Source: an uncultured virus (IMG/VR IMGVR_UViG_3300021957_005284) (lineage: Duplodnaviria > Heunggongvirae > Uroviricota > Caudoviricetes). From it: a DNA stretch of 20,000 nt. The DNA lies in the IMG/VR virus record IMGVR_UViG_3300021957_005284; one strand, 5' to 3'. The notes below the pieces were generated by a model. That model was given only the letters and a program-made list of their open reading frames with translations. It ran no database searches and had not been told where the DNA came from. This document shows, piece by piece, positions 1,192 through 3,986 of the stretch. A program made the position numbers and the translations under genes. The number at the start of each line of letters is the position of its first letter. Position 1 is the first letter of the stretch.

Positions 1192-1384
1192 ATAATTTTT
1201 ATTTTAAATTTTAAACCTCGTACTCCCTACCTTAAGTGTGCAGGTCTACAATGTGATAGAGCAACCTAACCATAGGGTTAGTATAGGGTGTTTTTTCCAT
1301 AGGGTAAAAAGTCAACCTCGATAAAAAAACCACTCCGAGCTCAACTACATGACCTGCGACCTGCTCAGTTACAAGAAACCTCCA

Positions 1385-1627
1385 CTACTCTTCCACTACC
1401 ACAACATCAATTAGTTGTGCTTTTACATATTTCTCCTTACTTCTTATCAACCTCATATCTTCGAACAACTCTATTTGTTTAAAGGCCGCTTCTAAGTTGA
1501 TGTATCTTTTACCTAAGAAATCTTCTCTTAGTTTAGGTGTCTTGGTTATCGTCACCATATCTGGTATAGTGTTAGTAGGTGTTTTTTCTATTATACAATT
1601 TCTGTGTTTAAATATTGTTCCTTCCAT
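1385..1627 (-). CDS. Hypothetical protein (80 aa)
   Basis: ORF track; on the coding strand, plausible composition. Confidence 0.7.
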   Translation of the reverse strand: MEGTIFKHRNCIIEKTPTNTIPDMVTITKTPKLREDFLGKRYINLEAAFKQIELFEDMRLIRSKEKYVKAQLIDVVVVEE

Positions 1628-2344: not shown

Positions 2345-2655
2345 ATAAAAAAAACCCACTAAGAAGGGTGATACAACTTAGTGGGTGGTTCGGACGAACA
2401 CTTTAGGATAGGAGAGAGTGAGTAATCACCCTATTGATACCATCGGAAACCCCTAACCGATGGCTGATTTACGGTAGCTCGAGTATCTTTCATTTCCTAT
2501 AAAGACTTACACCGTTATTTTTAAAAGAGATTCAGTTTTTATAGTAGGTGTATCTCCCAACCACTACTGACGGCCCCCTATATCTACAAGGGAGAGGTCT
2601 TTTCGATTAACTAGAGAGGGAATCAAACCCTATTTTCTCAATCATCAATCATATT
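2345..2655 (-). ncRNA. Candidate ~310-nt structured non-coding RNA
   Basis: Bounded by promoter copy 2 and an intrinsic terminator; no credible ORF; GC higher than flanks; several stem-loops (e.g. CCATCGG 2440-2446 / CCGATGG 2457-2463). Confidence 0.6.
2347..2386 (-). terminator. Intrinsic terminator
   Basis: Perfect 10-bp stem ACCCACTAAG (2354-2363) / CTTAGTGGGT (2377-2386), 13-nt loop, followed by a U run on the minus strand (A8 at 2347-2354). Confidence 0.75.
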
Positions 2656-2700
2656 ACATGACTAATATACGAAAAAAAACTGAGACTACAATGGCTTTTC
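2651..2700 (-). promoter_or_regulatory. Promoter repeat copy 2
   Basis: Minus strand AAAAGCCATTGTAGTCTCAGTTTTTTTTCGTATATTAG; same architecture as copy 1, 390 bp away. Confidence 0.75.
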
Positions 2701-3082: not shown

Positions 3083-3132
3083 TTATTACACTACTAATAT
3101 ACGAAAAATATTTGAGACTACAATGGTCTTTT
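3083..3132 (-). promoter_or_regulatory. Promoter repeat copy 3
   Basis: Minus strand AAAAGACCATTGTAGTCTCAAATATTTTTCGTATATTAG. Confidence 0.75.
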
Positions 3133-3233
3133 TCACTTTTTTTTCTCTCCACTCGTTTACTCCTGTGTGTACACTCCCACCCACAACCACCCTAAAGTTA
3201 CGATTTTTTTTCCACATCACCAAATAAAAAGAG

Positions 3234-3383
3234 TGACAATATGTCATAAGGAAGTGGAATTACGAATAATGCAAGAAAATCCCCATTTTGTTAGAAAAAA
3301 AAGGTATCGGGTGACAATGTGTCATAGTACAAAAAGAGGTGGATTGCGAATATGATAATTAGGGGGGGTATGACAATGTGTCA
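3234..3383. repeat. Three TGACA-N3-TGTCA palindromes (3234-3246, 3312-3324, 3371-3383)
   Basis: TGACAATATGTCA once and TGACAATGTGTCA twice; extra half-site TGTCAT at 3462. Confidence 0.85.
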
Positions 3384-3986
3384 CATTTCTCTTGGAAAAA
3401 AAATAGAGACGTATAAAGAGAGACTAGAGCTGCCCCTCTATATTGATATAATAGTATAAAGTGTCATAAAGTGGGAAGTATCACATAAGGAATTATGATA
3501 TAGGGTGTGTTTTTCAACCTTTTAAGAGGTTAGATGAAGTGAGACACCCTCGTATAAGGATTTTAAGGTGTTATAGAGGTTTATTCTCAATAGGTGTAAT
3601 ATTGGGGTACGGATACATTCTCAGACGTGGTTAAAATGGATGCTTTTGAGTAGGGTTTTTTGGGGTTAAATTAGGAGTGTTTGAACATAGGGGAAAGGGG
3701 ATGTAATGAGGAATGGAATCACTCATCCCTTTAGTTCATTTCTCTGCTCTCTTATATAGGGGGAGTGGGGAGTACGAGGGGATTTCTCTTGGGGAAAAGA
3801 CGGGGAAGGGGAGTAAAGAAGCAGTCTAAATTAAGAATTGGAAGTGTGGGCTAATAGGGTTAGTACTGTAAGGGGGTTAGTGTATATAGGTATTATACTG
3901 AGTAGTATTGTATATAAGGTTAATCTCTTCCTCTCTCTACTATCTTATCTATATCATATGGATAATCAACATTACCACACTTTCCA

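Follow-up and report, generated by a model that had tools for sequence, protein, structure and literature searches.

A probable structured non-coding RNA gene of uncultured large phages, with a portable hairpin module and a terminator-loop pseudoknot

We analysed a 20-kb stretch of DNA (20,000 nucleotides; hereafter, the window) from an uncultured virus, IMG/VR record IMGVR_UViG_3300021957_005284, and its relatives in viral and metagenomic collections. Positions 2347-2657 of the window, on the minus strand, are very likely a gene in its own right, whose product would be a highly structured non-coding RNA of ~310 nt; this RNA belongs to a family carried by large phages and presumably acts in trans. 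Comparison among the relatives shows what is, as read from sequence, a promoter-to-terminator, non-coding, strand-specific, covarying and modular RNA family that is absent from Rfam, and it looks like a new RNA family. The original prediction for this DNA, that it encodes a structured, stand-alone non-coding RNA equipped with a promoter and a terminator of its own, is supported by homologues in related large-phage contigs and by covariation, which extends to four helices and to the pseudoknot that had been proposed for the terminator loop.

Gene boundaries, promoter and coding potential

Nearly all genes in the window lie on the minus strand, and because the recognisable ones (a DNA methyltransferase, an endonuclease V-like protein, phrog_8133 and the ribosomal protein bS21) fit a large phage, we take the window to come from one. 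The RNA gene extends from a promoter repeat to a 10-bp terminator. The promoter box AAGCCATTGTAGTCTCA occurs in three copies, all on the minus strand (2291-2307, 2681-2697 and, with two mismatches, 3113-3129), against 0.07 expected by shuffling, with three or more found in 0 of 200 shuffles; beyond a T-rich spacer, each box is followed by TCGTATATT, of which the window holds six against 0.20 expected. Behind copies 1 and 3, ATG-led genes begin within a few bases, and copy 2, from which transcription is predicted to start at about 2655-2657, is followed by ~310 nt without a protein gene. The absence of a protein gene behind this copy, which the original prediction had remarked on, is borne out by a search for open reading frames (ORFs) that found none longer than 22 aa in 2345-2655, and so is the GC-richer character of the stretch (0.39-0.42 G+C vs about 0.29 in the flanks).

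Both promoter boxes also precede the RNA in its relatives, and they occur in three otherwise unrelated viral contigs (G001-G003). These contigs were considered as relatives of the RNA and rejected: they have the promoter boxes in common with it and no RNA homologue, and they share no proteins with the window except frame artefacts over the promoter. Since the boxes are present there without a common RNA or common proteins, this two-box promoter seems to be a type common to several phage lineages. It may resemble the -33 TTTG / -7 TAnnTTTG promoter type of Bacteroidota. Solely from its sharing of the two-box promoter, we infer that the RNA is expressed early.

No Rfam 15 model (4227 models) matched the 20-kb window at its gathering score, and at E values up to 10 nothing meaningful appeared on 2200-2800, the best being snoU31b over the promoter with 23 bits vs 37 required; this places the RNA outside the known families. 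ARAGORN called no transfer RNA (tRNA) or transfer-messenger RNA (tmRNA) gene in the window, Rfam searches of 20 related loci returned only tRNA and tmRNA, and the Rfam ribozyme models matched neither the window nor these loci. Every stem of the original prediction, read directly, lies where it had been placed (Table 1). The strongest local folds are at the 3' end, where the terminator (-15.2 kcal/mol, z -5.2), the hairpin at 2440-2463 (-12.8 kcal/mol, z -4.2) and the 3' half as a whole (2345-2467, z -4.0) were each matched by 0 of 200 shuffles.

The conserved 3' core and the variable 5' part

The RNA is modular, with a fixed 3' core and exchangeable 5' pieces. The core, ~175 nt long, runs from a portable hairpin module through a GGGG-capped hairpin (H2) and a purine arm, the partner of the terminator loop, to the terminator itself, with a C/U-rich strand and a small hairpin enclosed by the pseudoknot; order and spacing are fixed in 18 full-length members. 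A model of this region (R2) covers those 18 copies, one copy cut by the end of its locus and four short members, among 47 sources. The alignments A1 (MAFFT), A3 and A4 (model-based) lost register within H2 and the pseudoknot, so pairs were not counted on them.

The 51-nt module comprises a 5-bp closing stem (P1), an internal loop, a 3-4-bp inner helix (P2) and a nearly invariant apical loop of about 21 nt containing AGG-NN-AUGAAAGAUAC. Across 49 distinct copies, aligned gap-free, 93.4% of the cells are paired vs 65.5% in shuffled controls (0 of 500 as high), 136 cells are changed on both sides vs 41.8 in shuffles, and pairing falls to 26-49% when the partners are slid by 1-3 columns. Both partners change in each of the five P1 pairs. 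The middle P2 pair (16-40) takes all four Watson-Crick types (UA 27, CG 11, GC 5, AU 4, with GU 1 and other 1), and pair 17-39 is UG in 43 copies, CG in 4, GC in 1 and UA in 1; because such G-U pairs (43 of 49 at this one position) would be A-C on the opposite strand, they fix the strand of the module. RNAalifold, unaided, recovers the same P1 and P2. The TCTTT/AAAGA stem that the original prediction enclosed within P1 did not hold up, having no pair changed on both sides and two pairs broken in 20-22 of the 49 sequences. A C/D-box or kink-turn reading of the GUGAUGA in the module was dropped, as the two bases before the AUG vary.

The same AUG, which lies in the module loop, opens a mini-ORF, ATG AAA GAT ACT CGN GCA (MKDTRA...), which in the window amounts to 20 aa (2431-2493, minus strand), and the stretch might accordingly encode a small protein. 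The ATG and five further codons are retained in 49 of 49 copies, arginine is retained through all four CGN codons, and the GAT/GAC and GCA/GCT changes are silent; that these three variable sites fall at third codon positions is what coding predicts, and it counts against a purely non-coding RNA. By our count, however, three of four variable sites would fall at third positions by chance with odds of about 0.08, and the search patterns themselves fixed most of the codons. Coding leaves unexplained both the covariation of the N of CGN with a base 24 nt upstream and the 20 conserved bases upstream of the ATG, and codon 5 becomes Pro in locus L078 and Gln in L290, each with a matching change or a gain in pairing. 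Past codon 6 conservation ends, with 11 different residues at position 7, none in common thereafter, and total lengths of 7-87 aa (median 15), and the variant in viral record G009 reads ATG AAA TGA, stopping after two codons. The original prediction had named, among the observations that would speak against it, a match in Rfam, a lack of covariation and a conserved, translated small ORF. Rfam gave no match and covariation is present; the only small ORF that recurs is a frame kept for six codons, conserved beyond them in neither length nor sequence, and we consider a small protein highly improbable.

Downstream of the module, H2 is formed by at least 10 different complementary stems among the 18 members that have it (in this count the script mis-parsed L216 and L066), always under an invariant GGGG cap. 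It is absent from four shorter members (L125, L133, L140 and L148), and its exact 24-nt pattern was not found in the viral contigs. The terminator shows 11 distinct complementary stems in 22 RNAs. Its loop carries the proposed pseudoknot: AGGGTGAT at 2365-2372 is, as had been noticed, the exact complement of ATCACCCT at 2425-2432, and each of the 22 RNAs has, 40-60 nt upstream of the loop, a purine-rich arm complementary to it. The arm pairs take 15 distinct forms, among them AGGGTGAT/ATCACCCT in the window, GAGAGACC/GGTCTCTC, TGGAGACC/GGTCTCCA, GGAGGCC/GGCCTCC, GGAGGCT/AGCCTCC, GGAGGTC/GACCTCC and GAATGAG/CTCATTC. The mean score of own pairs is 13.95, that of cross pairs 10.95, and a mean as high as the observed one came from 0 of 10,000 permutations, so that by this comparative test the predicted terminator-loop pseudoknot is real. 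A possible resemblance to the 3' end of 16S rRNA (helix 45 and the anti-Shine-Dalgarno sequence), considered for both H2 and the terminator loop, was dropped, the arms varying freely.

Between the two pseudoknot arms, the C/U-rich strand contains CTCTCCTATCCT, invariant in 16 of 16 aligned RNAs, and its TCTCC-TAT is retained even in the four members without H2. The loop at 2447-2456 and the bases at 2403-2408, with which the original prediction had tentatively paired it, are both invariant among relatives and hence neutral as evidence of pairing. A search for targets of the C/U strand gave nothing convincing: its complement occurs in the window at a single site with three mismatches (3933-3948), and a search of 151 genomes of one Bacteroidota class gave scattered hits with 0-1 mismatches, about as many as a reversed-pattern control, and no common locus.

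The purine arm has a second potential partner in the C/U strand, over 4-7 bp in 22 of 22 members and over 7 bp in the window, where this pairing is part of the minimum free energy (MFE) fold. A two-state switch through the purine arm is possible in this way, although the alternative barely exceeds cross-sequence controls (485 of 10,000 permutations are as high). Such a fold would suit a cis-acting leader, a riboswitch or attenuator in which the module senses and the terminator gates the downstream gene at 1914-2264, and the RNA is indeed promoter-proximal, ends in a strong terminator and has a same-strand gene downstream. A full promoter copy (2274-2307), however, separates terminator and gene, and no promoterless regulated gene lies directly downstream. 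In relatives the terminator is followed variously by another promoter whose start is G-rich, by a gene for a membrane protein or by palindromes. The covarying partner is the loop of the terminator and not its stem, so the pairing does not compete with termination. As the module can, moreover, stand by itself behind a promoter of its own with no ORF following it, we regard a cis-acting leader as very unlikely.

The window's 5' domain recurs only in L218, L239 and G009, and for these four sequences RNAalifold gave 35 pairs, 5 of them changed on both sides. All family members read retain the leader GATTGAGA..CTCTA. The window and G009 have an insertion of 14 nt in the leader hairpin, which forms its T-arm-like tip; L218 and L239 lack it. 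In the hairpin at 2569-2599, G009 has CCTCT..AGAGG as its inner stem instead, and the outer pairs of L239 are changed on both sides. The original prediction's TCAGT/ACTGA stem loses two of its five pairs in L239 without compensation, and RNAalifold picks GAC/GTC and AGTAG/CTACT in its place. Other relatives have different 5' inserts, including an extra hairpin. In L125, L139 and L209, a tRNA-like insert of ~135 nt with a T arm and several small hairpins stands 5' of the module; its acceptor stems covary (GGAATTG/CAATTCC vs AGAATAG/CTATTCT), and neither ARAGORN nor Rfam called a tRNA in these inserts.

Table 1. Promoter and RNA elements of the window, listed from 5' to 3' along the minus strand after the promoter rows
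Feature	Position	Strand	Remarks
Two-box promoter-like element, three copies	2274-2307, 2662-2700, 3096-3129	-	
Promoter copy 2	2662-2700	-	box AAAGCCATTGTAGTCTCA (2681-2698), T-rich spacer, TCGTATATTAG (2662-2672)
5' leader hairpin GATTGAT..GAG..CTC..TAGTTAATC	2605-2650	-	RNAalifold: 10 pairs, one-sided changes only
T-arm-like hairpin AGGG-TTTGATT-CCCT	2617-2631	-	in the tip of the leader hairpin
Stem AGGG / CCCT	2617-2620 / 2628-2631	-	read directly
Hairpin GAC-CTCCCT..AGGGGG-GTC	2569-2599	-	four sequences
Hairpin AGTAG..CTACT	2543-2568	-	L239 has CGTAG..CTACG, both sides changed
Stem TCAGT / ACTGA	2532-2536 / 2566-2570	-	read directly
Portable hairpin module	2468-2518	-	P1 ACGGT/ACCGT; internal loop G-UAAG / A; P2 C-N-Y / G-N-G
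Stem ACGGT / ACCGT	2471-2475 / 2511-2515	-	read directly
Hairpin H2	2439-2464	-	GCCATCGG / CCGATGGT; invariant GGGG cap
Stem CCATCGG / CCGATGG	2440-2446 / 2457-2463	-	read directly
Pseudoknot 5' arm	2425-2432	-	AGGGUGAU on the RNA; pairs with the terminator loop
Single strand CUCUCUCCUAUCCUAA	2403-2418	-	C/U-rich, 16 nt, invariant; between the pseudoknot arms
Small hairpin GUUC-GUCC-GAAC	2388-2399	-	in the MFE fold; stem invariant, neutral as pairing evidence
Intrinsic terminator	2347-2386	-	10-bp stem, 13-nt loop with pseudoknot 3' arm AUCACCCU (2365-2372), U run
Terminator stem ACCCACTAAG / CTTAGTGGGT	2354-2363 / 2377-2386	-	a T run follows (minus strand)

Relatives, genomic settings and environmental reads

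Through one protein, the window was linked to relatives among uncultured viral contigs, 128-287 kb in length. A blastn search with the 321-nt RNA stretch against 11 related viral records gave true matches in four, G009 (E 3e-41, at both contig ends), G013 (E 2e-24), G010 (E 5e-13) and G012 (E 4e-8), in which the loci follow a common order of promoter, short leader, strongly conserved block, hairpin whose loop is G-rich, C/U-rich stretch and terminator; the genes flanking the RNA had no blastn match in the related records. A model of the module (R1) matched the window once, at 2468-2518 (67.5 bits, E 3e-18; next best 12.6 bits), and found one module each in G010, G012 and G013. The module of G009 is a degenerate variant with insertions, and a weak match in G011 proved to be a chance hit within a gene. 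In G009, a 275,970-bp contig, the last ~2 kb repeat the first 2 kb (L046 and L050; 99.5% identity over the RNA), and the RNA gene is thus within a terminal repeat or an assembly overlap.

Wider collections were scanned with two conserved words, comprising 17 fixed bases. The full module block was present in 15 of 19 viral loci, in 35 of 120 metagenome loci (of ~770 pattern matches estimated) and in 1 of 36 loci from 185,579 species genomes, this last one on a 2-kb contig of a Bacteroidetes-labelled bin; the other 35 species-genome hits were chance or coding matches, and so, as 17 fixed bases would lead one to expect, were the remaining loci of the other collections. Against 50,697 cultured-phage records, blastn of 2200-2800 gave no match and blastn of the module a single chance 23-nt hit (E 0.6). 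All members of the family seen so far belong to uncultured large phages, with marine, estuarine and lake metagenomes as the sources. Four sequence words of the RNA occurred in no paper text of Creative Commons PMC and bioRxiv, a corpus that lies apart from subscription journals and supplements. A 57-nt filament RNA of a 2026 preprint was considered and found to be an unrelated engineered kink-turn.

The module is found in other settings as well. In G015, a large-phage fragment, it forms a 65-nt unit that has a promoter to itself and no ORF behind it, within an island of RNA genes (L325, 10097-11751) that contains, in this order, a tmRNA, a tRNA-Met, a ~90-nt hairpin RNA, the stand-alone module, a GOLLD RNA (293 bits) and 26 tRNAs. 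Several RNAs of this island have a TTTGG..TCGTAT promoter of their own. The same order recurs in L248 and L265, where the module is again a separate small gene, and the same tools that found no tmRNA in the window found true tmRNAs in L265 and L325. In L116, L121 and L186, the module forms the loop of a gene-end terminator. Finally, in a second class of RNA (L124, L127, L141, L182 and others), a stem of a C run and a G run closes the module and is followed by ~150 conserved non-coding bases; this class lies directly after a gene of 51-57 aa (..YPKIEYW..) that has no Pfam match.

This mobility raises another explanation, that the 310-nt transcript is a precursor cut into small RNAs, such as a tRNA-like piece, a 51-nt module RNA and a 3' small RNA. 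The 5' pieces come and go (the 14-nt T-arm-like insert, the ~135-nt tRNA-like insert, the extra hairpin), and the module is a separate small gene among tRNA genes in G015, L248 and L265. The 175-nt core, however, keeps its order and spacing from module to terminator in all of its full-length members, no tRNA was called by ARAGORN or Rfam in the window or the inserts, and the contigs show no readable processing ends. A precursor therefore seems quite unlikely, and we continue to favour a single, independent RNA.

The original prediction had also placed the RNA near a ribosomal protein gene. This gene is real, encoding bS21 at 1000-1191 on the minus strand (Pfam PF01165, E 5.3e-10, 39.3 bits vs a cut-off of 27); the adjacency is not conserved, the two being >100 kb apart in relatives. 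Each of the four near-complete records that bear the module or the RNA (G009, G012, G020 and G025) also has bS21, never adjacent to it.

We also mapped the locus in environmental samples. In two DNA runs (among estuary, marine and salt-marsh samples), the summed contig depth over 2313-2716 was 26-139, with gene bins at 1000-2312 at 2-24 in X18 and 19-42 in X3; the higher depth over 2313-2716 implies that many co-occurring relatives have that stretch. In the salt-marsh RNA libraries X19 and X20, contigs of relatives cover the module at depths of 12.5 and 4.1, and the neighbouring genes stand at 2-5. Contigs in these libraries end at the module's edges, which are also the edges of a region of shared 31-mers; because a shared 31-mer would itself produce ends there, they are uninformative, and no start, end or strand of a transcript can be read from them.

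Several features of the surrounding sequence were recorded alongside. At 3174-3203 (minus strand), a promoter-like -7 box is followed by a G-rich start, GGGTGGTTGTGGGTGGGAG, and an element of this type also lies directly downstream of the RNA terminator in L093, L139, L218 and L239; the G-rich start may form a G-quadruplex or pair with the RNA stretch ACCACCCAC. It belongs to a region (3150-3900) of 750 nt, G-rich and without ORFs, in which the palindrome (G/A)TGACAAT(A/G)TGTCA(T/C) occurs three times (3233-3247, 3311-3325 and 3370-3384). Similar TGACAAATTGTCA palindromes stand behind the RNA terminator in relatives, and the region may be a set of operators, an origin or a genome end. A second GC-richer patch without an ORF (1200-1385, minus strand; 0.40-0.42) lies downstream of the ORF at 1385-1627, and RNA-library contigs of relatives cover 1237-1488. 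Further, a 42-nt direct repeat (1882-1923 and 2000-2041, 83% identity) overlaps one gene at its start and the following gene at its end; in a relative, both DNA and RNA-library contigs lack 142 nt here, with 1876 joined directly to 2019.

Weight of the evidence, known RNAs and possible function

Several observations weigh against an independent, structured RNA gene or limit how far it can be generalised. Taken as a whole, the 321 nt fold with a z-score of only -1.4 (10 of 100 shuffles as good), and the module hairpin on its own has a z of -0.2. A terminator scan lists nothing at this locus, because its loop limit is 8 nt and the loop here has 13. The search patterns fixed 14-17 of the module's 23 invariant columns, which makes that invariance largely circular; a pattern that left the 3' half of the module free gave 12 true hits with only 3 positions varying. 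The counts for H2, the pseudoknot and the terminator come from an anchored custom script and not from a pair-counting tool, and the 5' domain comparison includes four sequences. In the complete records G009 and G011, R1 gave no match among the 150 of ~200 candidates that were scored, and on the same scoring G011 shows no RNA at all; it nevertheless encodes bS21, whose association with the RNA stands without a base rate and whose adjacency to it is confined to the window. Evidence of expression is weak: the RNA libraries gave contigs only, at 90-99% identity, with neighbouring genes covered to a similar depth, and DNA carry-over is possible.

Among known RNAs, GOLLD (RF02032) and ROOL offer the closest parallels, in lifestyle only. 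GOLLD is described in PMC12286853 as a phage RNA found near tRNA islands, with pseudoknots, no known function and sometimes tRNAs in its linker. The likeness lies in both RNAs being phage-encoded and heavily structured with pseudoknots, to which may be added that the module lies directly upstream of the GOLLD gene in G015 and that some family members have tRNA-like inserts. They differ in having no match in sequence or structure and in size, ~310 nt vs >800 nt for GOLLD; no RF02032 match was found in the window, whereas the same library scores true GOLLD RNAs at 293 bits (L325/G015) and 261.5 bits (G012). Since G012 carries both RNAs, 35 kb apart, the RNA described here is neither a part of GOLLD nor its replacement. 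ROOL is likewise presented there as a phage or prophage RNA with multiple pseudoknots, often near tRNA islands and without a known protein partner (PMC12286853); the present RNA has no Rfam match to it at the thresholds used, and its helices and conserved sequences differ.

A likeness to tmRNA and tRNA is seen in the T-arm-like tip in the window, the acceptor stem and T arm of the inserts in relatives and the AUG-led frame of the module, and tmRNA and tRNA-Met genes adjoin the module in one lineage. The window RNA, however, has no acceptor stem or CCA end, and its frame is not conserved. The tmRNA model RF00023 reached 5.9 bits (E 4), at 2644-2723, a position that falls on the promoter rather than on the RNA, and the window gave no RF00005 match to a tRNA cloverleaf, only the T-arm-like hairpin that two of the four close relatives lack. 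OLE RNA, finally, is a large structured RNA proposed, according to PMC12286853, to sequester bS21/RpsU. The parallel here is co-occurrence only, stated without a base rate, in that bS21 is encoded by the window and by four of four near-complete carriers; there is no Rfam match to OLE, which is bacterial, while the RNA here comes from phages.

As an independent RNA gene, the locus would be transcribed by the host polymerase from the promoter type of the neighbouring small genes. Transcription would end at the RNA's own terminator, whose knotted loop could provide a compact, nuclease-resistant 3' end. The RNA would then act in trans, and its invariant unpaired elements (the module loop, the GGGG cap and the C/U strand) may be docking surfaces for a conserved partner. 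Because the module keeps company with tmRNA, tRNA-Met, a tRNA array, GOLLD, tRNA-like inserts and bS21-encoding phages, our best guess, though one well short of an even chance, is that this partner is the host translation apparatus, be it the small subunit, a tRNA or the processing of either. The module may alternatively assemble with itself or cleave itself, and the GGGG cap and C/U strand are candidate contact sites for multimers.

More speculatively, and with rather little probability in our judgement, the module itself could be a functional RNA device, either a small ribozyme or a docking element for some universal component of the translation machinery, for instance the small subunit, the initiator tRNA or the tRNA elbow, and the window RNA an early scaffold that joins this device to an exposed C/U strand so as to re-programme host translation. 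Were this so, large phages that encode bS21 would put the module to use in four settings or more: by itself, as a gene within tRNA/tmRNA/GOLLD islands, as the loop of gene-end terminators, at the head of the second RNA class and in the 310-nt RNA.

Structured phage RNAs that have so far remained without a function are few (GOLLD, ROOL), and each has been structurally surprising. The present family adds to them a compact RNA with a terminator-loop pseudoknot that is strongly backed by covariation, together with a module of >20 near-invariant bases that is reused in unrelated RNA contexts of many uncultured aquatic phages. This reuse suggests a single conserved molecular partner, and a link to host translation becomes open to test through the genomic association with tmRNA, tRNA arrays, GOLLD and phage bS21.

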